From Endomicrobiia bacterium (GTDB lineage Bacteria; Elusimicrobiota; Endomicrobiia; DTEH01): a stretch of DNA of 64,000 bases. The translations under genes and the position numbers were made by a program. The notes beneath the pieces were generated by a model. That model did not search any database. It had not been told where the DNA came from and was given only the letters and a program-made list of their open reading frames with translations. Shown piece after piece: positions 16,521-32,595 of this stretch (position 1 is its first letter; every line of letters begins with the position of its first letter). The DNA is taken from the NCBI GenBank assembly GCA_025059805.1, contig JANXDG010000030.1:10646-74645 (forward strand), written 5' to 3'.

Positions 16521-17332
16521 ATACCAACCTGAGACAAATTAAAATTCTTTGTATAAGTTTCACCATCTTCTGTTTTTAACTCTACTGTAACCAATTCTTT
16601 TATGCAATCAATACCAATTACTTTACCTTCACCGTCTGGAGTTTTTATTTTACCACCTATTTTAGGAAATTTCTCAACTGCTTCTTTATAAAATTGATAT
16701 TCATAAAAAAGACAACATTTTAATCTATTACATAAACCTGACAATTTTGGTATGTTTAAAGTAAGTTGTTGAACTTTTGCCATTTCAACAGAAATAGACT
16801 CAAATTTTTTTATCCAACGTTTACAACAAAGTTCATATCCACAAACTCCGATACCGCCTAAAATCTTTGTTTCATCACGTACTCCAATTTGTTTCATCTC
16901 AATTCGTATTTTGAACTTATGTGCTAATTCATGTATTAACTTTTTTAGATTAACTGGTTTTTCTTGTGTGTAATATACATAAAGTTTAGTTCTGTCAAAA
17001 GAATAAAGTGCTTGTACAACTTTTATTGGTAGATCATAGTTTTTAACGACTTGTTTTATAGTTTTAAGAACTTCTTGAGACTTTTGTAAATTCTCTTTTA
17101 TACGCTGAATGTCTTGTTGGTTAACTTTACGTATAAGTTTATAAAGATTTTTTTTGTCAATTTTGCTTTCTTCTACTATCTTTTCTTCAGAACTAACAAC
17201 ACCAACATCATATGTATTTTCAATAAAAACAACTACTTTATCACCTATTTTAAGATCAATCTTTTCTATATTTTCTGCTAAAACTTCCTTGCTATCACTA
17301 AGTTTAACATTAACTATATGTCGTTGGTGCAT
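16517..17332 (-). CDS. ricT: PSP1-domain protein RicT/YaaT
   Basis: PSP1 C-terminal region with conserved Cys cluster (GVCGYELCCKRW...SGLCNRLKCC). Sits in the conserved position downstream of holB. Confidence 0.75.
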   Translation of the reverse strand: MHQRHIVNVKLSDSKEVLAENIEKIDLKIGDKVVVFIENTYDVGVVSSEEKIVEESKIDKKNLYKLIRKVNQQDIQRIKENLQKSQEVLKTIKQVVKNYDLPIKVVQALYSFDRTKLYVYYTQEKPVNLKKLIHELAHKFKIRIEMKQIGVRDETKILGGIGVCGYELCCKRWIKKFESISVEMAKVQQLTLNIPKLSGLCNRLKCCLFYEYQFYKEAVEKFPKIGGKIKTPDGEGKVIGIDCIKELVTVELKTEDGETYTKNFNLSQVGI

Positions 17333-18216
17333 ATTTGCCTTAACCTTACTAAAAAAGTCTCCAAAAGTATTCTATAGTCAATATTGTATCTAAATTCTTT
17401 TATATAACTCTCTACTTCGTCAAGAAATTGAAAATATCCTTCGTTAAAATTAAAGTTCTTATCTAAAAAGTTTTCAAATAGACTCAACAAAAAATATTTT
17501 GCAAAATTTTTATCTACAACAACATCATCCAAAACTCTTTGTAAATCAAACAATGTGGAACCAAAAATATTAATATCTAAATTTTTAAAACGTTTTGTAT
17601 ATTCAATTTCTTCTATTGACCCCAAAACAGAAGTTTCTGGTAACATATTATCTTTTACAATCTCATTTATTGTTTTTTTATCCAATGGCAAAAATTTCAC
17701 TTGTTGACACCGAGATAATACAGTTTTTGGCAAAAGACCAATTGATGTTGTTATAAGGATAACAACACAATTAATTGGTGGTTCTTCTAAAAGTTTTAGT
17801 AGAGAATTAGCAGCATCTCTTTGTAAGGTTTCTGCCGAATCAATTATAACAACTTTGTATTTATTTGAAAATGATGTCAATGAACAAAAATGTTTCACAT
17901 ATCTTATAGTATCTATACTTATTACGTTGGCTTTTTCTGTTTTCTCAAGTAATCTATCTTGAAAGTCAAAATCTACAACTATGACATCAGGATGTATTTT
18001 ATCATCCACTTGTATACAAGTATCACATTTATCACAACTATACCCTTCATATGGTTTTTCACACATTAAAGATTTTACAAACTGAATTGCAGTAAACTTT
18101 TTCCCTACCCCTTTTACACCATAAAATATGTATGAATGTTTAACACTTCCAGATTTTATATCGTTTAATAATAAGTTTATTGCATATTCTTGACCAAAAA
18201 CATCTTTGAAGCTCAT
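17314..18216 (-). CDS. holB: DNA polymerase III delta-prime subunit
   Basis: AAA+ Walker A FYGVKGVGKKFTA and a zinc-module-like CDKCDTCIQV. Lies downstream of tmk. Confidence 0.8.
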   Translation of the reverse strand: MSFKDVFGQEYAINLLLNDIKSGSVKHSYIFYGVKGVGKKFTAIQFVKSLMCEKPYEGYSCDKCDTCIQVDDKIHPDVIVVDFDFQDRLLEKTEKANVISIDTIRYVKHFCSLTSFSNKYKVVIIDSAETLQRDAANSLLKLLEEPPINCVVILITTSIGLLPKTVLSRCQQVKFLPLDKKTINEIVKDNMLPETSVLGSIEEIEYTKRFKNLDINIFGSTLFDLQRVLDDVVVDKNFAKYFLLSLFENFLDKNFNFNEGYFQFLDEVESYIKEFRYNIDYRILLETFLVRLRQICTNDI

Positions 18217-18239
18217 TTTTTACTACATTATATTATGAC

Positions 18240-18875
18240 TCAGAGTTTAAACTTTCTTTTTAATATATTTACGATAATATCATGTACTTCTTGCGAAGAT
18301 TTATTGTTAACATCTATTATGTAAAAATTCTTTCTACGATTAGCAAGTTTTAAATATCCTTCACGAATCTTGTGATGAAACTCAAGATCTTCCTTTTCCA
18401 TCCTATCAAAATTTTTTGTTCTGTTTTTGATTCTTGACAATCCTTCATCTGGATGGATATCTAAAATAAATGTTATATCTGGCGTTATACCTCCTACAAC
18501 TAAACGATTCAAAGTTTCAACAAATTTCATCCCTAAACCACGTGCATATCCTTGATAAACAACAGAAGCATCAGCAAATCTATCAGAGATAACAATTTTG
18601 TTTTCTTTCAAACTTGGAGCGATAACTTCAGCAATATGTTGTGCTCGTGCTGCTTCATACAACAACAATTCCGCCATTGGTGTTATTTGCAACCTTGGCG
18701 AAAGTATAATTTTTCTTACCATTTCAGCCATTTTTGTCCCACCAGGTTCCCTTGTTAAAACTACATCGTAACCTTTTTGCTTCAGATGTTCACACAACAG
18801 TTTTGCTTGCGTTGACTTTCCACCACCTTCTGGTCCGTCAAAAACTATAAATAATTTTCTTTGTGTTTTTCTCAT
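18240..18875 (-). CDS. tmk: Thymidylate kinase
   Basis: LFIVFDGPEGGGKSTQAKLL P-loop with a DRF/DR motif; 211 aa. Confidence 0.9.
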   Translation of the reverse strand: MRKTQRKLFIVFDGPEGGGKSTQAKLLCEHLKQKGYDVVLTREPGGTKMAEMVRKIILSPRLQITPMAELLLYEAARAQHIAEVIAPSLKENKIVISDRFADASVVYQGYARGLGMKFVETLNRLVVGGITPDITFILDIHPDEGLSRIKNRTKNFDRMEKEDLEFHHKIREGYLKLANRRKNFYIIDVNNKSSQEVHDIIVNILKRKFKL

Positions 18876-20836
18876 TTACAATATTTTTCTCTGACGAAGT
18901 TTAACTTACCACCAGCTATAATGATATCTTTTTCTTCCTGTGTGAGTTGTAATCTTGTTTTGATAACTTTGTTAGTCCTTTTATGTATTAAAAACACTGT
19001 ATTAAATTGTAATTGTGAATGCAAATTCTCAATTATTATTTCATCTAAATCTTGGATCTCATCATAATTTGTTTCATCAAAAAATTCTAACGGTACTACA
19101 CCAAAGTTGATAAGATTATTTTTATGTATTCTTGCAAAAGATTTTGCTACTACAACACAAATACCATTGTATCGTTGGACAATAGCAGCATGTTCTCTTG
19201 AAGAACCCTGGCCATAATTGTGTCCAGCAATTAACACAAACATTCTTTCTTTTTCAGGAATGTTTTCTATTTTCGTTACGATTTCAGGATACTTATTACA
19301 AAACATATACTTACTAATTGCAGGAATATTAGATCTCAACGATAAAATTTTTGTCCCTGCAGGCAGTATATCATCTGTAGAGATATTATCAGGTAATTTC
19401 TTTAGAACTTTCAATATCATATTATCTGCAAGTGGTGGTATTTCAGGCAAAGGTTTTATATTTGGACCACGAAAAATTTCAACTTGAGTGTTATTCTTTG
19501 GTGGATATATAAAAAGTGGTTTAAAATTAATCTTTTCCGGAATTAATATCTTAGGATATCTACCCAAGACTTTAGGATGAACAATTTCTCCGTATATTGC
19601 TGCGGCAGTTGCTACTTCTACAGATGAAAGATAAACCTTTGCATCTTTAGTACCTGAACGTCCTTCAAAATTACGGTTAAAAGTTCTTAGAGAGATCCCT
19701 GCGCTTATAGGTGCTTGTCCTTGACCTATACATGCACCACATACTGGCTCCATCACACGTACACCAGCATTGTACAAATTTTCTAATAAACCTAGTTTCT
19801 CCAGTATGTACATTACTTTTCTTGAACCGGGATAAACAATAACTGAGACTTTTGGGTTAACTTTACGCCCTTTTAACATCTTAGAAAAAAATATCATATC
19901 TTTTATTGAAGAATTTGTACAACTTCCTATACATACTTGATCAACCTTTAACCCTTCAATTTCATCTACAGAAACAACATTATCTGGTGAATGAGGTTGA
20001 GCAACCATTGGTGATATTTTCGCAAGGTCAAGTTCGTATTCTTCATCATAACTACATCCTTCATCAGGATAGAGGTATTTAAAATCTTTTAGTCTATTAT
20101 GAAATTTAAAGAATTTATATGTCTGACGGTCTGACGGAAAAATTGAACTTGTAAGCCCTAATTCGGTACCCATATTGGTTATAGTAGCGCGGTCGTATAC
20201 TGAAAGTATTCTTATTCCTTCGCCTGTATACTCAAAAATTTTGTTTACTCCACCTTTAACCGTAAATTGCTTTAAAAGATATAGTATTATATCTTTTGCA
20301 GAGACAAATTCTTGCAGTTTATTTTTCAACTTAATATTAACAACTTTCGGCATACGTAAAGAAAAAGGTTCACCTGCTAATGCACACGCAACTTCTAACC
20401 CACCAACACCTATCGCTAACATTCCAACAGCTGAAGATGTAGGAGTATGACTATCAGAACCTATAAGTGTTGAACCTGGTTTTGAAAAATTCTCAAGATG
20501 TAGTTGGTGACAAATACCATTACCTGCTGGTGAGAAAATTATACCATACTTTGCTGCTACAGTTTGCAAGTATTTATGATCATCTGAATTTTCAAAAGAA
20601 GTTTGTAATGTATTATGGTCAACATAGGAAACTGCTAAACTAACCCTAACTTTTTTGTTCTTTTTATTGCATACAATGCTTTCGTATTGAAGATATGCAA
20701 GTGTACCGGTAGCGTCCTGCGTTAAAGTTTGATCAATTTTTAACTTAATAGGTTCTAATGGTTCAGGTATCTTTTTGTTATTACCTAAAATATGTGATAA
20801 AATGATTTTTTGTGTTAGGTTAAGTCTTGGTTTCAT
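18872..20836 (-). CDS. Aconitase-family hydratase, fused large+small subunit type (Aquifex-type putative aconitate hydratase, about 650 aa)
   Basis: GSDSHTPTSSAVGMLAIGVGGLE, CIGSCTNS and CGACIG Fe-S ligand motifs, plus a C-terminal swivel domain. The length matches the short Aquifex-type aconitase class. Confidence 0.78.
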   Translation of the reverse strand: MKPRLNLTQKIILSHILGNNKKIPEPLEPIKLKIDQTLTQDATGTLAYLQYESIVCNKKNKKVRVSLAVSYVDHNTLQTSFENSDDHKYLQTVAAKYGIIFSPAGNGICHQLHLENFSKPGSTLIGSDSHTPTSSAVGMLAIGVGGLEVACALAGEPFSLRMPKVVNIKLKNKLQEFVSAKDIILYLLKQFTVKGGVNKIFEYTGEGIRILSVYDRATITNMGTELGLTSSIFPSDRQTYKFFKFHNRLKDFKYLYPDEGCSYDEEYELDLAKISPMVAQPHSPDNVVSVDEIEGLKVDQVCIGSCTNSSIKDMIFFSKMLKGRKVNPKVSVIVYPGSRKVMYILEKLGLLENLYNAGVRVMEPVCGACIGQGQAPISAGISLRTFNRNFEGRSGTKDAKVYLSSVEVATAAAIYGEIVHPKVLGRYPKILIPEKINFKPLFIYPPKNNTQVEIFRGPNIKPLPEIPPLADNMILKVLKKLPDNISTDDILPAGTKILSLRSNIPAISKYMFCNKYPEIVTKIENIPEKERMFVLIAGHNYGQGSSREHAAIVQRYNGICVVVAKSFARIHKNNLINFGVVPLEFFDETNYDEIQDLDEIIIENLHSQLQFNTVFLIHKRTNKVIKTRLQLTQEEKDIIIAGGKLNFVREKYCK

Positions 20837-20837
20837 T

Positions 20838-22097
20838 TTATTTCAAATTCATTACTTGAATAATTTTTTTAAAAATATCTGTATTATCATATACACCACT
20901 AAAAATTTCTGAATTTTTGCCCATAGCATAAATAGGTACTGACATACCAGAATGTACAGAAGTTGACCATCCAATTTCTGCACGTGACGATATGATCCTG
21001 CTAATCTCTTTACGATTACCTTTTGAAATTTGTAGTATTTCTTCTTCAGTAAGATCAGCAATACCAGTATATTCTTCAAATTTTTGTATAATTATTTCTT
21101 TTGGTTGACCTTTCAGTTCTTCGCCAATTTTTTTAATAGAAATTTTTTGTTTACTTATTTTCTCTGGATAAAATCTATACTCACCCGTACCTAAAGATAA
21201 ACCACCAGTTTCATGGTCAGAAGTTATAATAATTAATGTATCCTGTAAAAGCTTTTTTTGTTTTATAGTTTCAACTACCATTGCTACTGCGTCATCAAAT
21301 TCTTTAATCTCATTTATAGCCGTGGCTGCGTCATTATCATGACAAGCCCAGTCTATCCTGCCAGCTTCTATCAATAAGAAAAAACCTTTCTTGTTTTTAC
21401 TTAATACTTCAATTGCTGTTTTACTTAATTCGCTTAATGAAGGTATATCATCTCTTTGTAAGAAGTTTTTGTCAATATAATATACAGAATCTATATCGTT
21501 AAACAATCCAGTCAATTTAGTTACCAATTTCGTATCTAAACTCAAAAGTTCATCTCGTGTAGTTACTACAGTATATCCAGCATTTATAAATTCTTTTGTA
21601 TAAACAGAAAGGTATCTCCCACCTCCTAACAGAACATCTACATTTTTCAATTCTACATATTGTTTAGCAACTTGTTTTTCATCACGAGAATTAATATGTA
21701 CTGCGAACCCAGCTGGTGTTGCATGGGTTATTGTCACTGTTGTCACCAAACCGACTGTTCTACCAGTTTTTTTAATTTTTTCAACAAGGTTCTCAACTAC
21801 AACTCCATCTGTTGTTAAACCTAAAAACGAATTTTTTGTTTTTACACCACAGGACATAGCGGTTGCCGCAGCAGCAGAATCTGTAACTAAACTTTCGTCA
21901 GAATAAGTCTTAACAATCCCTACAACAGGAAATTTTTCAAAGTTTAGATACTGATCTTTACCTACGATAATTATTCGTGCAAGATCCGTGATTGCTAACC
22001 CCATACCGTCACCTATCATCAGAATTAAATTTTTTACTTCACAAAAAATAATACCGTAACCAAGAAGTAATAAAAAAACTATACTTTTGTTTTTCAT
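20838..22097 (-). CDS. Alkaline phosphatase (PhoA family), secreted
   Basis: Signal peptide, the MIGDGMG metal site and the active-site Ser motif TDSAAAATA. Confidence 0.8.
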   Translation of the reverse strand: MKNKSIVFLLLLGYGIIFCEVKNLILMIGDGMGLAITDLARIIIVGKDQYLNFEKFPVVGIVKTYSDESLVTDSAAAATAMSCGVKTKNSFLGLTTDGVVVENLVEKIKKTGRTVGLVTTVTITHATPAGFAVHINSRDEKQVAKQYVELKNVDVLLGGGRYLSVYTKEFINAGYTVVTTRDELLSLDTKLVTKLTGLFNDIDSVYYIDKNFLQRDDIPSLSELSKTAIEVLSKNKKGFFLLIEAGRIDWACHDNDAATAINEIKEFDDAVAMVVETIKQKKLLQDTLIIITSDHETGGLSLGTGEYRFYPEKISKQKISIKKIGEELKGQPKEIIIQKFEEYTGIADLTEEEILQISKGNRKEISRIISSRAEIGWSTSVHSGMSVPIYAMGKNSEIFSGVYDNTDIFKKIIQVMNLK

Positions 22098-22185
22098 GGA
22101 AGTAATACAAATTTTACTATTAAAAAAGTGTAAGATTATTTATTGTATTAAAATTTTATTTACTTTTTCAACATAAAGAAAAGAT

Positions 22186-23229
22186 TCAATATTCTCGTTC
22201 AGTGTGAACACTATAAGTTAGCCCGTCAGAAAATACTGTTATATTTCCGTTTTGGTCTGTTCTATAAATTTTAATTCCTCGTTGGTTTAGTTTTTCCAAT
22301 GTAACCTGATGTGGATGACCAAACGGATTACCTCTACCACATGAAATTATAGCTACCTCAGGAGAGACATGATCTAAAAAAGGTTCAGAAGTAGAAGTGA
22401 AAGAACCATGATGAGGAACCTTAAGGATTGTTGATTTCAATTTATCTCTATACTCTAATAAATCCATCTCTGCAAAAGTTTCTATATCAGCAGTGAAAAG
22501 GACAGAAAAATTTCTATAGGTTAGTTTTATAACTATAGACGAATTATTATCTGCACGGTCAACCGTTTCAGACCGATATCTCTGTATAGGTCCCAGAATT
22601 TCTATGTCAACTTCAGGATCTAACTGTATTTTTTGCTGTGACTTTGCTATTTTGTAGTTAATCTTCATCCTATATATTGTATTTAATAAACTTAAATATT
22701 CAGGATGGGACGTTTCAAGCTTTGCGTCCATAAACCACTTAGGGACAAAACCTGCTTCCAAAATACTTCTTGTACCACCAAAATGGTCCGTATGTGGATG
22801 TGTAATCACGATTCCATCTAAATTAATTTTGTATCTTTCTAAATATGGAACGATAACTTCTTGACCAGCATCAATTTCTGTTATAAGAGTACCTGGTTCT
22901 GATTCCTGAACAACCATACCTCTACCAGGACCAGTATCTATCAAAAAACTTTTCTCATTAGGTAATGTTATAAGAATCCCATCACCTTGTGTTACATCAA
23001 AAAAAACTATTTTTAATAACTTATCAGAAGTTAACTTAAAATAAGATGTTGTTATTTCATTTTTAATCTTGGTATGTATTCTTTGAAAGGTAAATAAACA
23101 TAAAATTAAACATAAACCTGACAATATGTATGCTATAAGTTTATCTCCAAAAATATAAGGTTCGCCACTGTGCAGTTTTTCTTCAAGTTGTTTTACATAT
23201 TGTCTATGCCAATAGTTTCTTTTGTTCAT
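22186..23229 (-). CDS. Membrane-anchored MBL-fold metallo-hydrolase, ComEC C-terminal-domain-like
   Basis: N-terminal TM helix followed by an MBL fold (ITHPHTDHFGG, VPHHGS, NPFGHP) that resembles the beta-lactamase domain of ComEC/Rec2. Confidence 0.7.
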   Translation of the reverse strand: MNKRNYWHRQYVKQLEEKLHSGEPYIFGDKLIAYILSGLCLILCLFTFQRIHTKIKNEITTSYFKLTSDKLLKIVFFDVTQGDGILITLPNEKSFLIDTGPGRGMVVQESEPGTLITEIDAGQEVIVPYLERYKINLDGIVITHPHTDHFGGTRSILEAGFVPKWFMDAKLETSHPEYLSLLNTIYRMKINYKIAKSQQKIQLDPEVDIEILGPIQRYRSETVDRADNNSSIVIKLTYRNFSVLFTADIETFAEMDLLEYRDKLKSTILKVPHHGSFTSTSEPFLDHVSPEVAIISCGRGNPFGHPHQVTLEKLNQRGIKIYRTDQNGNITVFSDGLTYSVHTEREY

Positions 23230-23232
23230 CTT

Positions 23233-25137
23233 TTATAACTTTTCAGCTTTCGGAGAAACTGGTTGTTCTGTTGTCGTTAACTCCTGTTGTATTTCTTTAT
23301 CAATTATCTCACCGGTTTCCGATACTTTAAATAACAATTTATCTTGATATTCTGTTTTTATCAATTGTTCTTTAGGGCAACCTTTAAGATAGTCACAACC
23401 ACCACAGTATTTGTTAATTTTTGATGGAAAAATTTCTTCAATTTTTTCTTCTGGAGGTTTTTCTCCTTTAGTCTCGTATTCTTTTTTAAGGCTAATATAT
23501 TTCTCTCCGTCCGCCCACATTTTGTCTCCTATATTTTTTACATAATCGTCTAAAAGATCAATATCCTTCTGTGACCGTGTTGTATAGATTATTTCGCCAA
23601 AACGAATAAAGATTAAACCTAAACGTTTAATATCAATCCCTTTGTTCCTCATTGCCCAGTAATAGATTGTAAGCTGCAAATCTTTATCAACTTCTTCCTG
23701 CGTACGAACTTTTGGATCCGTCTTATAGTCAAGTATTTCAAAGGTTCCATCAGGATTATTCTGTACCCTGTCTATATATCCAATCATTACATGGTTTCCT
23801 TTACCTATAGGTAATTCAAAGTATTCTTCAGTCATATACGCAGGTAGGTATTGTTCTTTAACAAATTTTTCATAATAACTAGTTAACCATTTCTTACCGT
23901 TCTGATAATATTCCTGTTCTTCTTGTTTTGAACTATACCCTGCAGAAATCCAACATTGGTCGTATAAACGAAACAACTCATCTATACTCGGCTCTTTTCT
24001 TTTCTTTGGTTTTATCTTGTAAAAAAGTTCTAAAGTATTATGTATGGTTGAACCTATGGAAAAGAACCCTTGTGGTTTTACACCTAACCTATCTATGTAG
24101 CAGAGTCTGTATCTACGTGGACATTGAATATACATTGACATTTTAGAATATGATAACGCCATTCTACCAGGTGTCTCCCGCGCAATACGAAACAAAGTTG
24201 TATCTGGAGATACGGGTTCTATTCCTTTTTGTTTATCACCTTCACGCTCAGTCTTCCAACCAGGACAAATATCATAATACCCACACCAGCCACATAACGG
24301 TCCCTTATGAAGTTCATATTCTTTATTTCTCAATTTCTCCTTTACCTCGGATATAATTTTCCTAGTTTCTTCCTGCATTGACCAGTCCTCAACAAAATCT
24401 GTTAGATTATCGTATAACAAAAAAAACTTAGAAAATTTAAATTTCTTTTTTTTCTTCTCAAAGTATGTTTTTAAAACAAAATATTGTAAGTTTGTATTAA
24501 CATCGTAAGGTAACATCTCAGAAATAATATTTCTTTTACTTGTAGCAAAGTCTATTACCCAATAGTCAAAATTATTATCTCTGTTAACTAAGATACAATC
24601 GCATTTCATTTTTAACCTTACACCATTATGTTTAACAACAATATCGGAATTTACTGTATATACATATTGTTTATGTTTTTCATACCAGCAATTAAAGTTA
24701 GTAAATATAGTTCGTATATTTTTTTCGTAATATAATCTATCTTCAGGAGTAAGTTCTGGAAAGTTCTCCAATACCTGTTGCATTATTATAAGTGAAATAT
24801 ATTCTAAATCTACCTTAATCTCTTTATTCAAAATTTTATAAATATATTGATGTATTAACTGCCCTATCAATCCTTCCGGATACTCTTTCGCAAGAACTTC
24901 ATCTAAATTGTAGTAATACTGAAATTTGTATTTAAGTCCACATGTGCGCATATCACTAATTTTCCCTACCGTAAGAACAATTTTCGGAACGAACAAAAAT
25001 TTCAAATATTCAAAAATTTTTCTCACACCACTGGCTAACATTATAAACAGATCAAATATCCCGCTAACAGCTTGTTCTCCTTTAAGGTTTTTCATGTTCA
25101 TTTTACATTTTAAAGAGTTTATTTTTTTACATTGCAA
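23233..25137 (-). CDS. Tandem Cas4/RecB-like PD-(D/E)XK nuclease with two C-x2-C-x5-C Fe-S cluster motifs
   Basis: Two repeats. Repeat 2 has the Cas4 N-terminal Y-x2-CPR motif (MYIQCPRRY), GYIDRV, ILDYKT (D-x-K) and CGGCDYLKGC. Repeat 1 has a degenerate TCGL in place of CPR, CDCILV, IDFATS (Lys missing) and CGWCGYYDIC. Confidence 0.65.
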   Translation of the reverse strand: MQCKKINSLKCKMNMKNLKGEQAVSGIFDLFIMLASGVRKIFEYLKFLFVPKIVLTVGKISDMRTCGLKYKFQYYYNLDEVLAKEYPEGLIGQLIHQYIYKILNKEIKVDLEYISLIIMQQVLENFPELTPEDRLYYEKNIRTIFTNFNCWYEKHKQYVYTVNSDIVVKHNGVRLKMKCDCILVNRDNNFDYWVIDFATSKRNIISEMLPYDVNTNLQYFVLKTYFEKKKKKFKFSKFFLLYDNLTDFVEDWSMQEETRKIISEVKEKLRNKEYELHKGPLCGWCGYYDICPGWKTEREGDKQKGIEPVSPDTTLFRIARETPGRMALSYSKMSMYIQCPRRYRLCYIDRLGVKPQGFFSIGSTIHNTLELFYKIKPKKRKEPSIDELFRLYDQCWISAGYSSKQEEQEYYQNGKKWLTSYYEKFVKEQYLPAYMTEEYFELPIGKGNHVMIGYIDRVQNNPDGTFEILDYKTDPKVRTQEEVDKDLQLTIYYWAMRNKGIDIKRLGLIFIRFGEIIYTTRSQKDIDLLDDYVKNIGDKMWADGEKYISLKKEYETKGEKPPEEKIEEIFPSKINKYCGGCDYLKGCPKEQLIKTEYQDKLLFKVSETGEIIDKEIQQELTTTEQPVSPKAEKL

Positions 25138-28100
25138 CGTTCTCTTGCTCTGTTGCTAATCGTGTTTCGTACTCTTCCTTACTTATACCTGTTGTATATT
25201 TAAATTCTTCACCGTTCAACTCTACAACTACAGCACCAACGTAATCAGTACGTAAAAATTTTATACCTAGTTCTTCGTAAATATTTGCTGTTTCCGTAAC
25301 ATACGAAGAGAAAAAATACCCTATTCTCTGATTGGTCCAACCATATTGGCATATTGCAATCTTGGGCGATACTTTATAGAGAAAATTTTTATTTACAGAT
25401 TTTGAAAAACCATTCTGTGGCACAAGCAAAATATCAGCAGTTAATTTGTCTGACATATCCATTACAAATTTTTCCTGCAACTCAAACCCAACCTGTGATG
25501 GTATCAAAATTGTAATTTGACCAAAAGTTATCCTAACAGCAAAAGAATTATTGCCTGGTTCATCCATCGTGTTATTTACGCCACCTGGGTTTATTATCGT
25601 TACCCTTAAAGGTTTGCCACTTACAATTTCTTCTAGTATAAGCTCTTCATTAGAAGAGACAATTTTTACATCACCTCTATAATTCTTCAAAAATCTTGAG
25701 AGTTTATAATTCTCGTTGTATAACCCTGTCACTTCGTAAAGATACGGATTTGACATATAGTACCATAGATTAAACTTCTCTAAGAAATCATAATATGTAA
25801 AAGAAGTACAGTCTTTATAGGTATGTGGCAAATATAATTTCTCTGTCCGAAAATGCGAAAGAAGATAAGGTAAACCGCCGATACACTGTGGTTTCAATGA
25901 TGTTATAACTACACTATCAAACTTTTTGATCTTATAATAAGTTAATGTTGGAGAAATTGCAGATTCTGCAGGTGACCAACCTGGAGGACCAGGTGGACCT
26001 GTATCTATTAAAACATTTTTTGTTGGCGTAGTTATAAGAACAGCATTACCAAAACCTACATCAAAAAAAATCAGTCTTACACTATATGTTTTCTTAATTT
26101 CTGGTAATAAAAAATAATATATTAAAGAAAAAAATATTATAACTGAGGTTACTACCACTTTCAGTCTATATTTTATGAACATTTCTTTAATTTTATCAAA
26201 CCATATAATTATGCCTAAAATCAAATACCATATAAGTAGCGATTTACTGCTAAACATTTCAACATAAGGATATGGCACAAAATTACCCCAGGTTTTTGCC
26301 ATACCCAAAAACATCTGACAAAGTTGATTATTGAACGCATTAATTATAAGTGCTATATTTACACCTATGTCGTTAATTATCTTAAAACCAAAAAGTGAAG
26401 AAAATAAGGTAAATACTAAATCAATAATACCTGCAATCCAGCCAAGTTGAACAATCCATCCTATTAGAGGTATAGCAAGAAAGTTTGCATAAAAACCAGA
26501 AATTGGAAATCTATAAAAATATACACTTGACAATGGCCACATCATACCTAACTGTATTGCTACCTGTGCACAAACAAATTGTATTAACGTACGCAATGTC
26601 GGGTTTGATCTCATATCTTTAACCAACAATTTACCAGAGAGAGAATATAAATAGTGTGCTATTACTCCACAGAAATAAAAAACTAATGAAAGTAAAAAAA
26701 ACTCACCTTTGTATAGCCATCTTGAAGTTGGTATGTTGAACCATTTTGGAAACAAAACATCTAATGATGGGAACCAGACTAAAAACGGGAACAGTTTCCT
26801 TACTAAAGAAACTTCTTGCAAAATTCCACCAAATAAAGAAAGCAATGTCATTCCAGTTACTACCGAAAATAATGGAAAAGTAATAAACTGGTGAATAAGT
26901 TTTGAATTTGTATAAATCAAAATTTTTTCAACCACAGGGCTAACATATATAAGAGACCATACTGCCATAAATGATAATACAAATGAAGCATCTGGTAATA
27001 AACTTGGATTCAATAATAGTATAACACAGGCTGCGATAATAATTGTCATCCTGGAACTCTTAACCAAAGATAATTTCAATACATCATACATAAATAAACC
27101 TGTACAGAACATCAATGCTGATCTTGTAGTTGCAGGCGACGCGCCTGTCATTATCACAAAAATTGTCAACGCTATGCTAACTAAAATAAATCTTAGAAAA
27201 GATTTGATTTTAAAAATTCTACATATCATTAAAAGTAATGCTGCGATAAAACCTGTATGTAAACCTGAAAGTGCAAGTACATGCGCTACACCTGTTGCTT
27301 GAAACTGCTCTCTAATTTTTTGAGGGACACCACCACGATAACCAAGTGTCACACCTCCTAAAAACGCACTCTGCGGGTACGGCACTGTTTTACGTATTGT
27401 TGTTAATATTTTTTTTCTCAAAATAAATGCTAGTTTCACTATAAAGTTAACTTTGCCCATACCAATATATTGTATTTCTGACGAATCACGTATAGTCTTT
27501 GTCACTGCATAGATACCACGAGCATTAAGATATTTTCTATAGTCAAACCCAGCAGGATTTGTAGCTTTTTTCGGTAATAGTAATGGTGATACTATTTTAA
27601 CATAGTCACCATAGCTCATCTGTAAATAATATTCACCAATTGTTGGTAACACCTTTGCTCTAATAAGACCACTACCGTTTTCAATTTTTACTTCTTCACC
27701 CTGATAACAACGAAGTTTTTTAATTATTTTTATATTGGGATCATCATAATACTGCCCAAGGCCAGATTCCAAAAGTAACTTATTAACATTTTCATTATTT
27801 ACAAATACCACTGCTAAAACTCTATCATAAATGTCAAACATATAATCTTCTTGAATAATCAGAGTAACATGTTTATTTAATATTTTACTTCTTAAAAATT
27901 CAGTTGCCTCATCTGCTTTTTCCTGCCCAATCTCTGGTGCATTAACAGCCATCAGTCGTACTTTATTGCCACTTTTCGTAACAAAGGTATCACCATCTGT
28001 TACTTTAACAACAAATTCATTCTCTACTATAACTCTAGCTGTTGACGTATCAATCTCTATAGTATATCCCTTTTTTGGAGATGGTATAATGCGATCGGGT

Positions 28101-28525
28101 TTTATAACAATATTTGTTGCATCCTCTCTTATATCTGGATCAGTAACTATTGTACCATAAATAACACTTGTCTGTGAGAAATCAGTATCAATAAATTTAT
28201 ATTTTCCATTTTCTTTAGTAAGTAAATGTGTTGAGGGATAAACTTTCATATCTTTGAGGTACCAAAATACACCAAAGGAAAAACTTGCAAAAACAAGAAA
28301 TAAACGTTTAAAAGTAAGCTTAGGCAGGACTTCTTTTTCAGGAATAATTATAGATATTATGATAAAAATAAAACAAACGATTAAAAATATATAGTGTGGT
28401 GGGCTTAAAAGTATTGAAATATTGGAAGTATATCCTATAATACCTATTCCAACCCCTGCTACAAAGAACCATAACACTATCACTGAATTTTCTAATATAT
28501 TAGCAATTTTATTTCGTAAATCCAT
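25127..28525 (-). CDS. comEC: ComEC/Rec2-family DNA internalisation channel protein with an embedded thermonuclease (SNase) domain and C-terminal MBL domain
   Basis: 1132 aa. It has a Competence-domain signature (VAHVLALSGLHTGF). An SNase-like segment (VTDGDTFVTKSGNKVRLMAVNAPEIG...DRVLA) sits in the N-terminal extracytoplasmic region. The C-terminal MBL-like domain begins VRLIFFDVGFGNAVLI. Confidence 0.75.
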   Translation of the reverse strand: MDLRNKIANILENSVIVLWFFVAGVGIGIIGYTSNISILLSPPHYIFLIVCFIFIIISIIIPEKEVLPKLTFKRLFLVFASFSFGVFWYLKDMKVYPSTHLLTKENGKYKFIDTDFSQTSVIYGTIVTDPDIREDATNIVIKPDRIIPSPKKGYTIEIDTSTARVIVENEFVVKVTDGDTFVTKSGNKVRLMAVNAPEIGQEKADEATEFLRSKILNKHVTLIIQEDYMFDIYDRVLAVVFVNNENVNKLLLESGLGQYYDDPNIKIIKKLRCYQGEEVKIENGSGLIRAKVLPTIGEYYLQMSYGDYVKIVSPLLLPKKATNPAGFDYRKYLNARGIYAVTKTIRDSSEIQYIGMGKVNFIVKLAFILRKKILTTIRKTVPYPQSAFLGGVTLGYRGGVPQKIREQFQATGVAHVLALSGLHTGFIAALLLMICRIFKIKSFLRFILVSIALTIFVIMTGASPATTRSALMFCTGLFMYDVLKLSLVKSSRMTIIIAACVILLLNPSLLPDASFVLSFMAVWSLIYVSPVVEKILIYTNSKLIHQFITFPLFSVVTGMTLLSLFGGILQEVSLVRKLFPFLVWFPSLDVLFPKWFNIPTSRWLYKGEFFLLSLVFYFCGVIAHYLYSLSGKLLVKDMRSNPTLRTLIQFVCAQVAIQLGMMWPLSSVYFYRFPISGFYANFLAIPLIGWIVQLGWIAGIIDLVFTLFSSLFGFKIINDIGVNIALIINAFNNQLCQMFLGMAKTWGNFVPYPYVEMFSSKSLLIWYLILGIIIWFDKIKEMFIKYRLKVVVTSVIIFFSLIYYFLLPEIKKTYSVRLIFFDVGFGNAVLITTPTKNVLIDTGPPGPPGWSPAESAISPTLTYYKIKKFDSVVITSLKPQCIGGLPYLLSHFRTEKLYLPHTYKDCTSFTYYDFLEKFNLWYYMSNPYLYEVTGLYNENYKLSRFLKNYRGDVKIVSSNEELILEEIVSGKPLRVTIINPGGVNNTMDEPGNNSFAVRITFGQITILIPSQVGFELQEKFVMDMSDKLTADILLVPQNGFSKSVNKNFLYKVSPKIAICQYGWTNQRIGYFFSSYVTETANIYEELGIKFLRTDYVGAVVVELNGEEFKYTTGISKEEYETRLATEQENVAM

Positions 28526-28706
28526 TTTTACTCAACAGTTTTTGTAAATCTTTTTTCACATTTTCGTCGTTTATTTGAGGATAGTAATTTTTGTTCGTCT
28601 GATAAATATTTTTAATTCTATACTCCGGCATTGTCAACAACACAACTCCTCCTATTGTCAAAGAAACTAAAAGCATAAATATAAATAATTTAGTTGTGGC
28701 ATCCAT
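28509..28706 (-). CDS. Small single-TM protein (hypothetical)
   Basis: 65-aa ORF with one hydrophobic helix. Overlaps the comEC start by 17 nt; no homology recognised. Confidence 0.3.
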   Translation of the reverse strand: MDATTKLFIFMLLVSLTIGGVVLLTMPEYRIKNIYQTNKNYYPQINDENVKKDLQKLLSKNGFTK

Positions 28707-28730
28707 AGTTTTTATGACACCTATTAATCC

Positions 28731-29570
28731 TTAATGATTTCTATTTAAAAATTTTCTAACCAAATCAAACATAAACTTTTCGTCAGCTTTCACACCTGTC
28801 CATAAGAAAAAAGATTCCACAGCTTGATATACAAACATTGGTACACCGTCAAAAACATGTTTGCAACCTATCTGTTTTGCATGTTTAACAAGCTCTGTCT
28901 CTCTGTTATACACTACATCATAGACAATGTGTTCTTTAGTTATGAGATCTAATCTTAAAGGTGAAAGGTCATTTTCTTTCATTCCAAGTGGTGTAGCATT
29001 CACTAACATTTTTACATCAGGTATAGTTGTATCAATTTGTTCTTCTTTGAGTAAAACAATAAAATCTTCAAATTGTTTTTTTATTAATAACATCTTGTTT
29101 TTGTCAATGTCATATACATATACTTTTTTTACACCTAACTCTTGTAATCCACAGACAATTGCTCTGCTAACACCGCCACACCCAATTACTAAAACATCCT
29201 CACCTTTCAAAGTAACCTCAGAAAGTGAATGTGTAAACCCATAAATGTCAGTATTGTAACCAATAAGTTCGCCACCTTTATTTACTACGGTATTAACAGC
29301 ACCAATGTGTTTCGCAAGTTTATCTACTTTGTGTAAATAAGAAATAACTTTCTCTTTATACGGTATGGTGATATTTAAACCTTCTATATTTAACGTTAAC
29401 ACAACTTCTTTAAAATATTTAAAGTTTTCAGGTAAAATTTCAAATGCTAAATATACAAAGTTAAGTCCGTATTTTTGTGCAAGTGATGTATGCAACATAG
29501 GAGAAAAAGAATGTTTAACAGGATATCCTATTATACCTAATAACCCTGTCTCAGAATTCACTAAGTTCAT
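28731..29570 (-). CDS. aroE: Shikimate dehydrogenase
   Basis: LLGIIGYPVKHSFSPMLH N-terminal substrate motif and GCGGVSRAI NADP motif; 279 aa. Confidence 0.85.
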   Translation of the reverse strand: MNLVNSETGLLGIIGYPVKHSFSPMLHTSLAQKYGLNFVYLAFEILPENFKYFKEVVLTLNIEGLNITIPYKEKVISYLHKVDKLAKHIGAVNTVVNKGGELIGYNTDIYGFTHSLSEVTLKGEDVLVIGCGGVSRAIVCGLQELGVKKVYVYDIDKNKMLLIKKQFEDFIVLLKEEQIDTTIPDVKMLVNATPLGMKENDLSPLRLDLITKEHIVYDVVYNRETELVKHAKQIGCKHVFDGVPMFVYQAVESFFLWTGVKADEKFMFDLVRKFLNRNH

Positions 29571-30037
29571 TCTTTTAAACCTCCAAAACGTATATCTATC
29601 ATTGAAAGATATCTCTCTACTTCCTTACGTTTTGATTCATCTATACTTAATACCTTATGAAAAAAAATTCTTGCCTGTCGGTACTTCCCAGCAGCAAAGT
29701 AAACCTTGCCTAGTAACATCAACACCTCTGAATTCTTCGGTTGTTTATTTAATATTTCAAAACACAATTTTTCTGCCGTTGTAAAATTCCTAGAATAATA
29801 ATTTTTATATGCGACATAGGTAAGATCACGGTTGACAGCTTTTCTAATCTCCACACCTATAGAAACTATTCCTGTTAGAATTAAAAACAATCCTATCTTT
29901 TTCCCATGCAAAATTATTATTCGTTCGTTGAACAAAAATTTTTTAATAGATTCGCATATTTTTATTAGAAGACTAATTTTATAAATATAAAGTAAACCAA
30001 CAACTATAAAAATTATTCCGATAAAAATTGATATCAT
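29567..30037 (-). CDS. Membrane-anchored TPR-repeat protein
   Basis: Two N-terminal TM helices then TPR-like repeats (LGKVYFAAGKYRQARIFFHKVLSID). Confidence 0.5.
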   Translation of the reverse strand: MISIFIGIIFIVVGLLYIYKISLLIKICESIKKFLFNERIIILHGKKIGLFLILTGIVSIGVEIRKAVNRDLTYVAYKNYYSRNFTTAEKLCFEILNKQPKNSEVLMLLGKVYFAAGKYRQARIFFHKVLSIDESKRKEVERYLSMIDIRFGGLKE

Positions 30038-30043
30038 TATTTC

Positions 30044-30250
30044 TTACTTATTATTTATTTCGATCTTTACCACATTTATTTTTTTATCTACGCCTTTCAA
30101 TGTTTTAACTAAAGCTATTATTACTTGTACAAACACTTTCTTCACATATGTGTTTAATGCAATTTTTTTGTAGTTAACTTCAAGAGTTATGTTCATTTTT
30201 CCTCCAAAAAGTGAAAATTCATGTATATATACATCAAAGAATCTTATCAC
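30044..30250 (-). CDS. Hypothetical small protein (68 aa)
   Basis: ORF only, with a 4-nt overlap with the upstream ZIP gene that suggests translational coupling. No recognisable motif. Confidence 0.25.
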   Translation of the reverse strand: MIRFFDVYIHEFSLFGGKMNITLEVNYKKIALNTYVKKVFVQVIIALVKTLKGVDKKINVVKIEINNK

Positions 30251-30966
30251 AAAATACTCATAAATCCTATACCTAATAAAAATATAACCAAGGAAATTAA
30301 CGATCTCGTTAAATTTCTTTCTCTGTGCAATTCAGGTATTAGATCACAACATGACACATAAATAAACCCGCCTGCAACTAACGGAAGTAAATATAGTGAC
30401 AAAGTATGTATTCTGTCCGACATAACATATCCTAAAATAGCACCAATAACTGATGCTAACCCTGATAAAAAGTTGTATAAAATTGCTTTTTTTACACTTA
30501 ATCCGCTATAAAGCAAAATACCAAAATCTCCCAACTCCTGCGGTATTTCATGCAGTATTACAGCAATTGTTGAAACAATGCCAATTTTAACATCTATAAA
30601 AAAACTAGCCCCGATAAACATACCGTCTATAAAATTGTGTATCGTATCTCCAAGAATATTTAAATAACTTACAGGATGTAACTCACAGTTTTCACCCTTA
30701 TGACAATGTCGCCAGTATAGATATTTTTCTAATATAAAAAAAACGATGAAACCTAAAACAACATAATAAAAGGTAACTTCACTTTTTTCAACTATCTCAG
30801 GAAGAATATGCAAAAATGATGCCCCAATCAAAGTTCCTGCTGCAAAACTTATTAGAATAAAAATTATATTTTCTACGACAGATGTTGTAAATAACAAACT
30901 TATTGCTCCAATAAGAGATAATAAACTTACAATAATACTTGCAATTAAAGTATAAAAAAACTTCAT
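30247..30966 (-). CDS. ZIP-family metal (Zn/Fe) transporter
   Basis: Eight-TM topology with the HNFIDGMFIGASF and HEIPQELGDFGILL signature motifs. Confidence 0.8.
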   Translation of the reverse strand: MKFFYTLIASIIVSLLSLIGAISLLFTTSVVENIIFILISFAAGTLIGASFLHILPEIVEKSEVTFYYVVLGFIVFFILEKYLYWRHCHKGENCELHPVSYLNILGDTIHNFIDGMFIGASFFIDVKIGIVSTIAVILHEIPQELGDFGILLYSGLSVKKAILYNFLSGLASVIGAILGYVMSDRIHTLSLYLLPLVAGGFIYVSCCDLIPELHRERNLTRSLISLVIFLLGIGFMSIL

Positions 30967-31544
30967 GTTCTTGCTCCTATTGAAACTATATATATTGGTT
31001 CAGTATCTTCTGGTAACTTAAGGAGATGTTTCACATCCTTGTCTACAAACGCACCAATGCACACGCTATCCAAACCTAAACTAATAGCTTGTAAACAAAT
31101 GTTTTGAGCACAGTGTCCCGCTTCCATATATACATAACGATAGCCACGACTCCCATAATACATCACTGTACGTTCATACACAGCGCAGATAACAATACTG
31201 ATAGCAGCTTCTGCAATAAATTTTTGACCTAAAGCACAATTGACAAGTTCTCTCCTAAAATCTCCTTCCGTTATTCTTTTTACTGAATGTTCTTCAGGAA
31301 AATAATGATAAATACCTGTTTTATCTAAGTAATATATTTCAAGTGGATATGTTGCACCTGCGGATGGTACAGTTTTAAACATATTTTTATCATCTGTAAC
31401 ACCGTATGCTGACCATAAAAGTTGAGATATCTGTATATCTGTCGGCTGAAAATCCCTAAATTTTCTAATTGATCTCCGTTTCGATATTACTTCTTCAACA
31501 GAAATTTTGCCTTTGTAATTTGGCACAGGAAGTTTGTATCTCAC
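30963..31544 (-). CDS. SagB/ThcOx-type dehydrogenase domain protein (nitroreductase superfamily), stand-alone
   Basis: RRSIRKF, PSAGATYPLEIY and the overall SagB-type dehydrogenase domain pattern (by eye, about 190 aa). No cyclodehydratase lies nearby. Confidence 0.65.
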   Translation of the reverse strand: MRYKLPVPNYKGKISVEEVISKRRSIRKFRDFQPTDIQISQLLWSAYGVTDDKNMFKTVPSAGATYPLEIYYLDKTGIYHYFPEEHSVKRITEGDFRRELVNCALGQKFIAEAAISIVICAVYERTVMYYGSRGYRYVYMEAGHCAQNICLQAISLGLDSVCIGAFVDKDVKHLLKLPEDTEPIYIVSIGART

Positions 31545-31574
31545 ATTTTTAACCTAATAGAAATCAACTTATTT

Positions 31575-32147: not shown

Positions 32148-32153
32148 TCTTTC

Positions 32154-32594: not shown

Positions 32595-32595
32595 A

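Follow-up and report, generated by a model that had tools for sequence, protein, structure and literature searches.

Whether bacteria take up DNA mainly for genetic exchange or for food is a long-standing question. To our knowledge, the cytoplasmic fate of the single-stranded DNA (ssDNA) imported by ComEC has been followed in only a handful of model species, which protect the strand and do not cut it, and we know of no dedicated nuclease on the cytoplasmic side of the canonical uptake machinery. The stretch of DNA analyzed here, a 64-kb portion of a contig from an Endomicrobiia bacterium (hereafter the window), encodes a Cas4-like nuclease immediately next to comEC. The locus raises the question of what kind of enzyme this is, and whether its position reflects a role in DNA uptake.

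All coordinates below are window positions, and all features described lie on the minus strand. The mechanically called open reading frame (23233..25137) encodes 634 amino acids from a TTG codon that overlaps the comEC stop. Judging from the start sequence, the true start is most likely the ATG at 25101 (M13) or 25095 (M15), which would give a protein of about 620 amino acids. The alignment of homologues begins at M13, and the NCBI protein P0001, which is 100% identical to the window nuclease, is 620 amino acids long. The gene was delimited as 23233..25101 on this combined basis, while residue numbers follow the 634-residue reading frame. An AF2 model (pLDDT 86.7, pTM 0.81) contained two alpha/beta domains, an N-terminal helix (residues 19-49; 24991..25083; pLDDT 56-65), and an interdomain linker (residues 301-326; 24160..24237). 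The linker is conserved in the family alignment (A1), where its consensus, FRxARxxxGRMxLSYSK, extends into the C-terminal domain. The relatives of the protein were all from uncultured genomes.

The initial annotation had described the protein as a tandem of one degenerate and one intact Cas4-like repeat, and this description was confirmed. The whole protein matched PF12705 (PDDEXK_1) at 146 bits against a gathering threshold of 22, and each half passed the same cutoff independently over model positions 2-247, with 48.2 bits (E 1.8e-12) for the N-terminal half and 102.4 bits (E 5.1e-29) for the C-terminal half. The family profiles of the two domains aligned with each other in hhalign over 234 columns, with all motifs in register (probability 99.96%, E 8.4e-39), a similarity well above chance. 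A direct BLASTP comparison of the two halves was insufficient to reveal the duplication, which required the profile-profile comparison. Only the CxxCx5C stretch was matched by BLASTP (E 0.075), which indicates that the duplication is ancient. When modeled separately (pLDDT 90.8), the N-terminal half matched the nuclease domain of AdnA in Foldseek (E 3.6e-11, TM 0.64-0.67), and further matches were found to ACE1, AddB, Dna2, and Cas4, with RecC chains also among them. The nuclease is a tandem of two PD-(D/E)XK domains of the Cas4-AddB type.

The two domains differ in what they have retained. The C-terminal domain (residues 327-590; 23368..24159) is predicted to be the catalytic copy. All the hallmarks listed for it in the initial annotation were present, namely Y336-x2-C339-P-R, I455-D456-R457, D470-Y-K472, and C578-x2-C581-x5-C587. 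The core from I-D456-R to D470-Y-K472 (23722..23772) and the C578-x2-C581-x5-C587 motif (23377..23406) fell in invariant columns and were supported by the census, and C339 (24121..24123) supplied the fourth Cys of a 1+3 set. The catalytic D...D/E-x-K together with QhxxY was complete (D456, D470, K472, Q488, and Y492), and the active site of this domain type, H-E-D-D-K-Q-Y, was present in 62/62 aligned relatives, while each of the four Cys positions was a Cys in at least 60 of the 62.

The N-terminal domain (residues 54-300; 24238..24978), delimited from PDDEXK_1, AF2/Foldseek, and hhalign, is predicted to be catalytically crippled. As had been noted for the first repeat, the four Cys were kept, while CPR was changed to C66-G-L and D-x-K to D196-F-A198. 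Cys66 (24940..24942), the first predicted Fe-S ligand, is followed by G-L and not P-x; it was invariant in A1, and in the census every one of the 96 N-type domains that aligned there had a Cys. The other three predicted ligands, C282-x2-C285-x5-C291 (24265..24294), were likewise invariant in A1, and the CxxCx5C motif was conserved as Cys in 100 of 102 N-type domains. Motif III (24544..24552) has Ala in place of the catalytic Lys. The motif-II Asp (D180), the motif-III Asp (D196), and His96 were retained, but the QhxxY motif was gone (N216...F220), leaving the catalytic set of PF12705 incomplete (D180, D196, A198; N216, F220).

The N-type domains of the family varied in which residues were lost. 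In the Endomicrobiia clade, CPx has no proline, QhxxY is gone, and the position of the catalytic Lys was occupied by A, M, or V. Across the census (n = 102) the Lys was kept in 93 domains, the second Asp (D2) in 89, and the third (D3) in 69, and the Gln of QhxxY survived in just 11. The N-terminal domains of P0016 (44% identical) and of a majority of the distant relatives retained D-D-K, while those of other clades had decayed differently, for example to S-Q-K or D-I-K, giving at least three distinct loss patterns. As read from the aligned sequences, it is only in the close Endomicrobiia clade that the Lys was lost. The varied losses suggest that the conserved feature of N-type domains is the Cys cluster and the fold, with catalysis decaying repeatedly. 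The N-terminal domain is also evolving about twice as fast as the C-terminal domain: the median pairwise identity was 24% for the former versus 41% for the latter, and it was lower for the former in 99% of 780 pairs. The N-terminal domain of the window nuclease is probably inactive, although it may have residual activity given its two Asp, its His, and a nearby Lys (TSK).

If both domains were active, the N-terminal one would have to replace its lost Lys, for example with the conserved Lys of T-S-K five residues after D196, and the protein would make two cuts per pass. Catalytic residues can migrate in the PD-(D/E)XK superfamily, and the retention of H96, D180, D196, and the full fold, as well as the complete D-D-K in a majority of the distant relatives, would agree with such a replacement. 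It is nonetheless improbable, since A, M, or V at the Lys position within the Endomicrobiia clade implies that the position is under no constraint there, QhxxY has disappeared from nearly all N-type domains, and the domain diverges at about twice the rate of its partner. In addition, the Lys at +5 was also found in members that have the canonical Lys (KTGK), and is thus not compensating for its loss. A separate alternative concerns the Cys sets. The initial annotation had assigned each repeat its own Fe-S cluster motif, and the 1+3 pattern (C...CxxCx5C) of 'iron staple' nucleases such as Cas4, AddB, AdnA, Dna2, and Exo5 was indeed found twice, as C66/C282/C285/C291 and C339/C578/C581/C587. Such sets are able to bind other metals in vitro, and cluster binding is predicted here from the Cys pattern. 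A protein that binds zinc or nothing at these sites, and that serves the ComEC machine as a non-enzymatic DNA-binding scaffold, is very improbable all the same, given the complete and invariant catalytic set of the C-terminal domain in all 62 relatives. These ligands coordinate an Fe-S cluster in every solved relative with such a pattern (PMC12094033), and each domain of the window nuclease probably binds one as well.

The closest relatives in both sequence and structure were the nuclease domains of AdnA, AdnB, and AddB. Those of AdnA and AddB have the 1+3 Cys, D-DxK, and QhxxY in common with the C-terminal domain, and the similarity extends to the fold. A sequence search of the PDB yielded a match to AdnB alone, which was marginal (E 0.015). 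Membership in the AddB/AdnA family was rejected, as the AddB model TIGR02786 scored 24.4 bits (cutoff 486.5), with the match confined to the nuclease region, and as the protein lacks a helicase domain. AddB and AdnA carry SF1 (UvrD-like) helicase or helicase-like domains N-terminal to the nuclease domain, whereas no helicase domain was detected by Pfam in the nuclease, in line with the initial annotation, or in its window neighbors. The AdnAB and AddAB machines also use two nuclease domains, but here the two follow each other head to tail in a single chain, one of them is degenerate, and the genomic partner is ComEC instead of a helicase subunit. The initial comparison to an AddB-style pairing of an inactive and an active domain holds as far as one domain is degenerate and the other intact; AddB, however, combines its live nuclease with a helicase that is dead, and the term is a loose analogy. 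Better precedents are the two nuclease domains of AdnA/AdnB and RecC, in which a dead PD-(D/E)XK domain has been retained next to an active nuclease to channel or guide ssDNA. The RecC domain belongs to a helicase-like subunit and lacks an Fe-S cluster, in contrast to the apparently dead domain here, which is joined directly to the live one and still has its cluster ligands.

The relationship to Cas4 comprises the fold, the four Cys ligands, and the D-(D/E)xK site, but Cas4 consists of one domain and the window nuclease of two. Both halves matched the Cas4 profiles (TIGR00372 and PF01930) weakly, and the TIGR00372 scores of 39.4 bits for the whole protein and 26.5 and 25.1 bits for its halves were below the cutoff of 65. 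An assignment to CRISPR Cas4 was rejected on this score and on the genomic context, which contained no CRISPR repeat array anywhere in the 64-kb window and no adjoining cas genes, as the initial annotation had stated. ACE1 is a single-domain enzyme with a pAgo partner, while the nuclease has two domains and no adjoining Argonaute gene; the co-encoding with a long-A pAgo that marks ACE1 and ACE2 was not observed, and no Argonaute-like gene was present among the annotated neighbors in the window and nine related contigs. PHROGs returned only generic 'exonuclease' families. PADLOC gave generic Cas4 and MBL matches (39 bits), and an assignment to a defense system was rejected as these matches were at the domain level. 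The best-fitting family, pfam12705, is not CRISPR-associated according to Hudaiberdiev et al. (PMC5704561).

The nuclease is predicted to be soluble and cytoplasmic. Its N-terminal helix is amphipathic, with a hydrophobicity maximum of 1.44, and neither an N-terminal hydrophobic segment above 1.6 nor a Tat motif was found in any of 56 nucleases of the family. These scans of hydrophobicity and Tat motifs ruled out a signal peptide, a transmembrane segment, and a periplasmic or exported location. The neighboring gene products differed in this respect, an N-terminal hydrophobic segment being present in 97% of those of the MBL type and in 90% of the ComEA-like ones. The C-terminal MBL domain of ComEC, EndA, and NucA share with the nuclease a genomic and presumed functional tie to import by ComEC/ComEA, but they have other folds and act outside the cytoplasmic membrane, while the nuclease carries no export signal and would work on the cytoplasmic side.

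In the window, the nuclease gene abuts comEC, as reported initially, and lies between it and a gene for a stand-alone MBL hydrolase. The upstream partner, ComEC (1132 amino acids; 25127..28525; Pfam and NCBIfam), contains a DUF4131 OB fold, the Competence domain, an MBL domain, and an SNase-like insert (27713..27964; Pfam/NCBIfam). A motif scan indicated that its MBL domain has lost HxHxDH and reads VITSLKPQC there (25883..25909). The downstream partner (22186..23229; Pfam) has a hydrophobic N-terminus that would anchor it in the membrane. It resembles the C-terminal domain of ComEC (TIGR00361 positions 441-663, E 4.7e-47) and has an intact HPHTDH motif (22783..22800). The gap from the comEC stop (25127) to the nuclease ATG (25101/25095) is 25-31 nt, and that from the nuclease stop (23233) to the MBL ATG (23229) is 3 nt. 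No terminator-like site was seen among the three genes, though the AT-rich sequence made scans for promoters and terminators uninformative. Based on the spacing, comEC, nuclease, and MBL are predicted to form a tight, co-transcribed operon. The other neighbors in the window included genes for a phoA-type alkaline phosphatase, aconitase (acn), a TPR protein, a ZIP transporter, and a nitroreductase, together with aroE and, downstream in the window, tmk and holB. Since all genes of the window are on one strand, the co-orientation of comEC and the nuclease there carries little weight.

The linkage to comEC was more informative when followed among relatives. Of 66 species-level loci, 34 had a ComEC Competence-domain gene and 34 a stand-alone MBL gene, counted when on the nuclease strand and no more than 10 kb away, and 28 had a ComEA-like HHH_3 gene. 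As loci inside one clade are not independent, 34/66 overstates the number of independent observations. The comEC linkage nevertheless spanned five or more clades and survived in at least five gene orders, with C-terminal domains only about 40% identical between clades, and it recurred in several uncultured bacterial phyla and was also borne out on Pfam-annotated contigs. Its conservation across phyla and gene orders makes the comEC neighbor the most informative feature of the nuclease. In clade D, for example, the operon reads deoC-pdp-comEC-comEA-MBL-nuclease-DHH-cdd, adding deoC, a pyrimidine nucleoside phosphorylase (pdp), cdd, and a DHH phosphoesterase. The division of the MBL motif seen in the window was also present elsewhere: 39 of 40 ComEC-size proteins in the loci lacked HxHxD[HR], which was kept in 20 of 37 stand-alone MBL proteins. 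A nearby comEC was absent for the multi-domain members of Riflebacteria, the Tritonobacter/Euphemobacter members, P0045, P0046, and P0055. In the literature, we found no paper tying ComEC to Cas4 or to a Cas4-like, PDDEXK, or RecB-family exonuclease; a phylogenomic study of Cas4 and a survey of the PD-(D/E)XK superfamily mention neither tandem forms nor ComEC. This gene context, the linkage of comEC, nuclease, and MBL, is the main new result.

The position inside the ComEC operon in several uncultured phyla suggests that the nuclease probably processes imported DNA. We propose, with about an even chance of being right, that the protein cuts ssDNA in the cytoplasm and is coupled to ComEC-mediated uptake. 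An ancient internal duplication of a PD-(D/E)XK domain of the Cas4/AddB/AdnA type produced a soluble, predicted cytoplasmic protein of about 620 amino acids, and the 1+3 Cys 'iron staple' of each copy should bind a [4Fe-4S] cluster. The C-terminal copy would cut ssDNA that reaches its D-DxK site by way of a narrow channel, by analogy to ACE1 and AdnA, which have an Fe4S4 iron staple and thread ssDNA to a buried D-DxK site (PMC12094033). The N-terminal copy, which in this clade is without QhxxY, the proline of CPx, and the catalytic Lys but has kept the fold, the ligands, and two metal-binding Asp, would most likely bind or guide DNA without cutting it, like the dead nuclease domain of RecC. 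Its partners would be a ComEC with a dead MBL nuclease motif and a separate, membrane-anchored MBL nuclease, leaving it as the sole soluble cytoplasmic member of a conserved DNA-uptake gene set. It would receive the single strand delivered by ComEC and cut it, most plausibly feeding nucleotide salvage or catabolism, or alternatively trimming the strand before recombination. Two general considerations count against such cutting: known transformation systems shield the incoming ssDNA instead, and ssDNA import is generally thought to proceed 3'-end first, while enzymes of the Cas4/AdnA type usually engage 5' ends. The analysis establishes how the domains are arranged, which residues they carry, the predicted fold, the conserved synteny, and the lack of export signals; the binding of Fe-S clusters, the inactivity of the N-terminal domain, ssDNA as the substrate, and a link to uptake are inferred.

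An unlikely alternative is a general end-processing nuclease of recombination or repair, acting like AddB or AdnA, alone or with an unlinked helicase, whose proximity to comEC would reflect a loose clustering of genes for DNA metabolism. It would fit the nearest relatives being AdnA, AdnB, and AddB nuclease domains, the placement of P0045 beside polA and fpg (consistent with a repair role), the several members without comEC, and tmk and holB downstream in the window. A UvrD/PcrA-like gene in the clade C loci could similarly point to repair, but the Walker A and DExx motifs of its product are degenerate. A helicase is missing from the nuclease and its window neighbors, and without selection for co-expression it is difficult to account for a linkage with comEC, MBL, and ComEA that has outlasted rearrangement into at least five gene orders, in clades about 40% identical. 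The nuclease could also restrict or sample foreign DNA at the uptake channel, like solo-Cas4 or like ACE1, which converts ssDNA to guides. ACE1, an Argonaute-associated enzyme of the Cas4 family, was among the best structural matches, the PADLOC Cas4 models matched weakly, and Cas4-like proteins of pfam12705 are frequent in defense contexts (PMC5704561). Such a role in defense is nevertheless improbable, as the PADLOC matches remained at the domain level, no Argonaute, cas, restriction-modification, or other defense genes adjoined the nuclease in the window, which also lacked a CRISPR array, and the conserved neighbors were genes of DNA uptake and nucleoside catabolism.

If the linkage to comEC is incidental, the nuclease would be an uncharacterized but ordinary member of the pfam12705 group. 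Otherwise, its retention in the comEC operon of several phyla makes it a concrete and testable candidate for the nuclease that would act in the cytoplasm when uncultured lineages take up DNA as food, with one clade placing it between uptake genes and genes of deoxynucleoside catabolism. A broader and more doubtful proposal, offered tentatively, is that tandem Cas4-like Fe-S nucleases of two to five domains are a dedicated cytoplasmic arm of the ComEC machine in Elusimicrobiota and allied candidate phyla. These enzymes might shred the incoming strand for the catabolism or salvage of deoxynucleosides, with the clade D operon as a hard-wired form of 'DNA uptake for food' and the dead N-type domains as threaded guides that space the cuts. 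The family uses a Cas4/AddB-type domain as a repeat unit, with a single, invariant catalytic copy alongside one to four others that evolve fast. The latter, which keep only the cluster ligands, offer a natural experiment on what an 'iron staple' domain does beyond catalysis.

The nuclease ORF at 23233..25137 (minus strand) was found to be real and encodes 634 aa when counted from a TTG codon, with its first 11 nt overlapping the 3' end of comEC. The most likely start, judging from protein alignments, is the ATG at 25101 or 25095, 25-31 nt past the comEC stop (25127), because homologues align with the window protein from Met13 and P0001, a 100% identical NCBI protein from an Endomicrobia MAG ('PD-(D/E)XK nuclease family protein'), is 620 aa long. 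The gene ends at 23233, and the ATG of the next gene lies 3 nt on, at 23229. The G+C content of the window is about 31%, the minus strand carries all of its gene-sized ORFs (non-shadow, at least 150 aa), and the GC skew was negative in every 2-kb bin of 1..64000; the window sits inside one replichore of a genome with an extreme gene-strand bias.

The initial annotation described two tandem Cas4-like repeats, the first of them degenerate, and every motif it named was found in the protein: Y-x2-C339-P-R, I-D456-R, D470-Y-K472, and C578-x2-C581-x5-C587 in repeat 2, and C66-G-L, D196-F-A198, and C282-x2-C285-x5-C291 in repeat 1. Tested alone, each half matched the Pfam PDDEXK_1 profile end to end (cutoff 22), the N half with 48.2 bits (E 1.8e-12) and the C half with 102.4 bits (E 5.1e-29), and both halves were above the threshold for membership in pfam12705. 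A direct BLASTP of the N half versus the C half gave no significant match. The repeat is not an alignment artefact, as family profiles of the two halves aligned over 234 columns (E 8.4e-39) with every motif in register.

Assignment to Cas4 was rejected, as the protein scored 39 bits with the equivalog model, whose cutoff is 65, and the window has no CRISPR-Cas context, as noted initially, with neither cas genes nor a repeat array. AddB and AdnA were likewise rejected, given the lack of a helicase domain and a score of 24 bits versus 486, and so was ACE1, given the lack of a pAgo; neither a helicase gene nor an Argonaute gene was found in the window context of the nuclease. The observation in the initial annotation was thus confirmed, and its interpretation as an AddB-style pairing without a helicase was partly supported: no helicase domain is present, and the protein is not AddB itself. 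It works most like the nuclease domain of AdnA, AddB, or ACE1. The family comprises tandem-repeat nucleases of the Cas4/AddB type with predicted Fe-S clusters and one invariant catalytic domain. A phylogenomic study of Cas4 placed pfam12705 members in phage, UvrD-fusion, and COG1205 contexts and mentioned neither tandem forms nor ComEC (PMC5704561), and a study of ComEC evolution reported neither PDDEXK nor SNase among its co-occurring domains (PMC6299819). Full-text searches found no literature link of ComEC with Cas4-like or PDDEXK nucleases.

Residue states were compared in an alignment of 29 homologues of the window protein and in a census of every domain in 64 family proteins, which included the window protein and 63 proteins from 66 species-representative loci. 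In the C-type domain, H-E-D-D-K-Q-Y was present in all 62 copies and each of the four Cys positions was Cys in at least 60 of them. Such an invariant active site contradicts a non-enzymatic scaffold, an explanation we regard as very improbable. Among the 102 N-type domains, the four Cys were retained almost without exception, while the motif-II Asp was kept in 89, the motif-III Asp in 69, and the catalytic Lys in 93; QhxxY has its Q in just 11 of them. These losses were clade-dependent: in the close Endomicrobiia clade that holds the window protein the states are C-G and D-D-[A/M/V], in a second Elusimicrobiota clade S-Q-K, and in the CSSED10-310 relatives D-[I/A/D]-K. The homologue P0016, 44% identical to the window protein, retains CPL and D-D-K in its N domain. 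The N domain evolves faster than the C domain, with a median pairwise identity of 24% versus 41% and a lower identity in 99% of 780 pairs. Together, the retained Cys, the clade-by-clade loss of catalytic residues, and the faster evolution point to selection on the fold and the Cys cluster of the N-type domain, not on catalysis. Although it still has D180, D196, and H96, this domain most probably has no catalytic activity in the window protein; activity of both domains seems improbable, with the Lys position unconstrained and QhxxY gone.

Two domains were found in 41 of the 64 proteins, three in six, four in one, and five in 11, and all additional domains were N-type and ahead of the single C-type domain. 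Five tandem Cas4-like Fe-S-type domains, four N-type and one C-type in about 1290-1330 aa, were observed in Riflebacteria/Ozemobacteraceae (L034, L037, L039, L040, L042, L044, L046-L048, L051, and L052), for example in the 1326-aa protein of Ca. Ozemobacter sibiricus (contig L037, 8276..12256, plus strand). The third domain of these proteins has lost the motif-III Asp, and no comEC was found near their genes. An exhaustive representative search returned only some 35-40 clusters of full-length proteins at 50% identity, among them proteins 1297, 1245, and 1047 aa long in which three to four stretches matched. It also recovered about 1000 relatives of the C domain that have a single domain or are fused to a helicase. 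The tandem family is small and limited to uncultured lineages, namely Elusimicrobiota, Riflebacteria/Ozemobacteraceae, CSSED10-310, Sumerlaeota, Schekmanbacteria, Tritonobacter/Euphemobacter, and UBP18.

Upstream of the nuclease lies comEC (25127..28525, minus strand), whose 1132-aa product contains DUF4131 and a Competence domain, and upstream of comEC lies aroE. The metallo-beta-lactamase-type (MBL) domain of ComEC has VITSLKPQC (25883..25909, minus) where the HxHxDH motif is expected. Ahead of its OB fold, ComEC has a staphylococcal-nuclease-like (SNase) insert (27713..27964, minus; Pfam SNase 43 bits), a domain that Pimentel and Zhang (2018) do not include in their list of ComEC co-domains. 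Downstream of the nuclease, a stand-alone MBL hydrolase of 347 aa (22186..23229, minus) matches positions 441-663 of TIGR00361, the C-terminal MBL part of ComEC (E 4.7e-47). It has a hydrophobic N-terminal anchor and an intact HPHTDH (22783..22800), and appears to supply in trans the MBL catalysis of ComEC. Directly past it, and followed by aconitase, tmk, and holB, is an alkaline phosphatase with an N-terminal hydrophobic segment (20838..22097, minus; Pfam 301 bits), which could dephosphorylate nucleotides freed from DNA. This gene is missing from the matching position in a related Endomicrobiia contig (L001/L010). Elsewhere in L001, a UDP-glucose/GDP-mannose dehydrogenase gene (1..1923, plus) contains an intein (Pfam Intein_splicing, with a faint LAGLIDADG_3 match).

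In the Pfam-annotated contigs of nine homologues, comEC was adjacent or a few kb away in six (P0011, P0022, P0038, P0047, P0019, and P0016) and was not found near the nuclease in three (P0055, P0045, and P0046). Of the 66 species loci, 34 have a Competence-domain gene on the same strand within 10 kb of the nuclease, a count in which loci of one clade are not independent, and a stand-alone MBL gene was likewise near in 34. By our estimate, about 1% of random genes would have comEC within 10 kb, given 1-3 copies per few-Mb genome. Neighbour clustering recovered a ComEC/MBL family in 39 of the 66 loci and, in 28, a family resembling ComEA that carries two HHH_3 domains, besides DHH phosphoesterases (eight loci), DeoC (seven), pyrimidine-nucleoside phosphorylase (seven), cytidine deaminase (six), and UvrD-like proteins (five). 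Gene order differs among clades whose C domains share only some 40% identity: aroE-comEC-NUC-MBL (A), comEA-comEC-NUC-MBL-x-comEA-comEC2 (B), comEC-uvrD-like-MBL-NUC-x-comEA-comEC2 (C), deoC-pdp-comEC-comEA-MBL-NUC-DHH-cdd (D), and NUC-comEC-x-comEA-MBL-comEA (E), where NUC is the nuclease. The two-domain form is a conserved member of the comEC operon, and because this linkage has outlasted at least five rearrangements, it points to selection for co-expression. The Riflebacteria forms with more than two domains, and a few further members, do not have this link.

The clade D operon (L004 62..10218, plus; also L036, L043, L055, L056, L060, L062, and L065) ties DNA-uptake genes directly to deoxynucleoside-catabolism genes, and its DHH proteins have an N-terminal hydrophobic segment. 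One Elusimicrobiota clade encodes a UvrD/PcrA-like protein of 566-574 aa between comEC and the MBL gene (L026 7258..8979, plus; also L020, L022, L027, L031, and L003 3778..5478), with matches of 21.5 bits (Pfam) and E 0.0055 (PcrA) and degenerate Walker A (PPGGGST) and DExx (LIDGGQ) motifs. With an S-Q-K N domain and an MBL protein lacking HxHxDH, this locus brings together several apparently inactivated domains, recalling RecC or AddB. Many Elusimicrobiota loci contain two ComEC paralogues, the second about 2-3.5 kb downstream of the nuclease (L015/L016, L020, L022, L026, and L027); one, of about 980 aa, adjoins the nuclease, and the other, of about 690-710 aa, follows a ComEA/SLBB gene and the gene for a conserved coiled-coil membrane protein of 184 aa.

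Neither an N-terminal hydrophobic segment nor a Tat motif was found in 56 family members, while such a segment occurs in 97% of the MBL, 92% of the ComEC, 90% of the ComEA-like, and 88% of the DHH proteins, which makes the nuclease the sole soluble, cytoplasmic product of the gene cluster. In the nuclease loci, HxHxD[HR] is absent from 39 of 40 ComEC-size proteins and kept in 20 of 37 stand-alone MBL proteins; the nuclease functions of the uptake machine appear to have shifted onto separate polypeptides.

Architecture, residue states, predicted fold, synteny, and the lack of export signals were shown, and a mechanism can be proposed beside them. By analogy with solved relatives, each domain would carry a [4Fe-4S] iron staple, and ssDNA would be threaded via a narrow channel and cut by the C domain at its D-DxK site, the mechanism given for AdnA and ACE1 (PMC12094033). 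The genomic context suggests a single strand brought in by ComEC as the substrate, which the N-type domain may bind or guide without cutting, like the dead nuclease domain of RecC. The products may feed nucleotide salvage or catabolism, as suggested by the clade D operon and by the adjacent phosphatase and tmk in the window, or the strand may alternatively be trimmed ahead of recombination.

Coupling of the nuclease to DNA uptake has, in our judgment, about an even chance of being correct, and its specifically nutritional version is a tentative proposal that could well be wrong. One relative adjoins polA and fpg and several lack comEC, which would fit a nuclease of general repair or recombination whose synteny is incidental, an explanation that we consider unlikely. 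It is more doubtful still that the protein is a defence nuclease acting on incoming DNA, as defence neighbours were not found.

Competence genes are reported to be conserved and expressed in Endomicrobium (PMC8809381). The domains of the nuclease are themselves ordinary; what gives the finding its value is the conserved tie of the protein to DNA uptake and also, in one of the clades, to the catabolism of deoxynucleosides. These links provide a testable handle on the fate of imported DNA in uncultured phyla.
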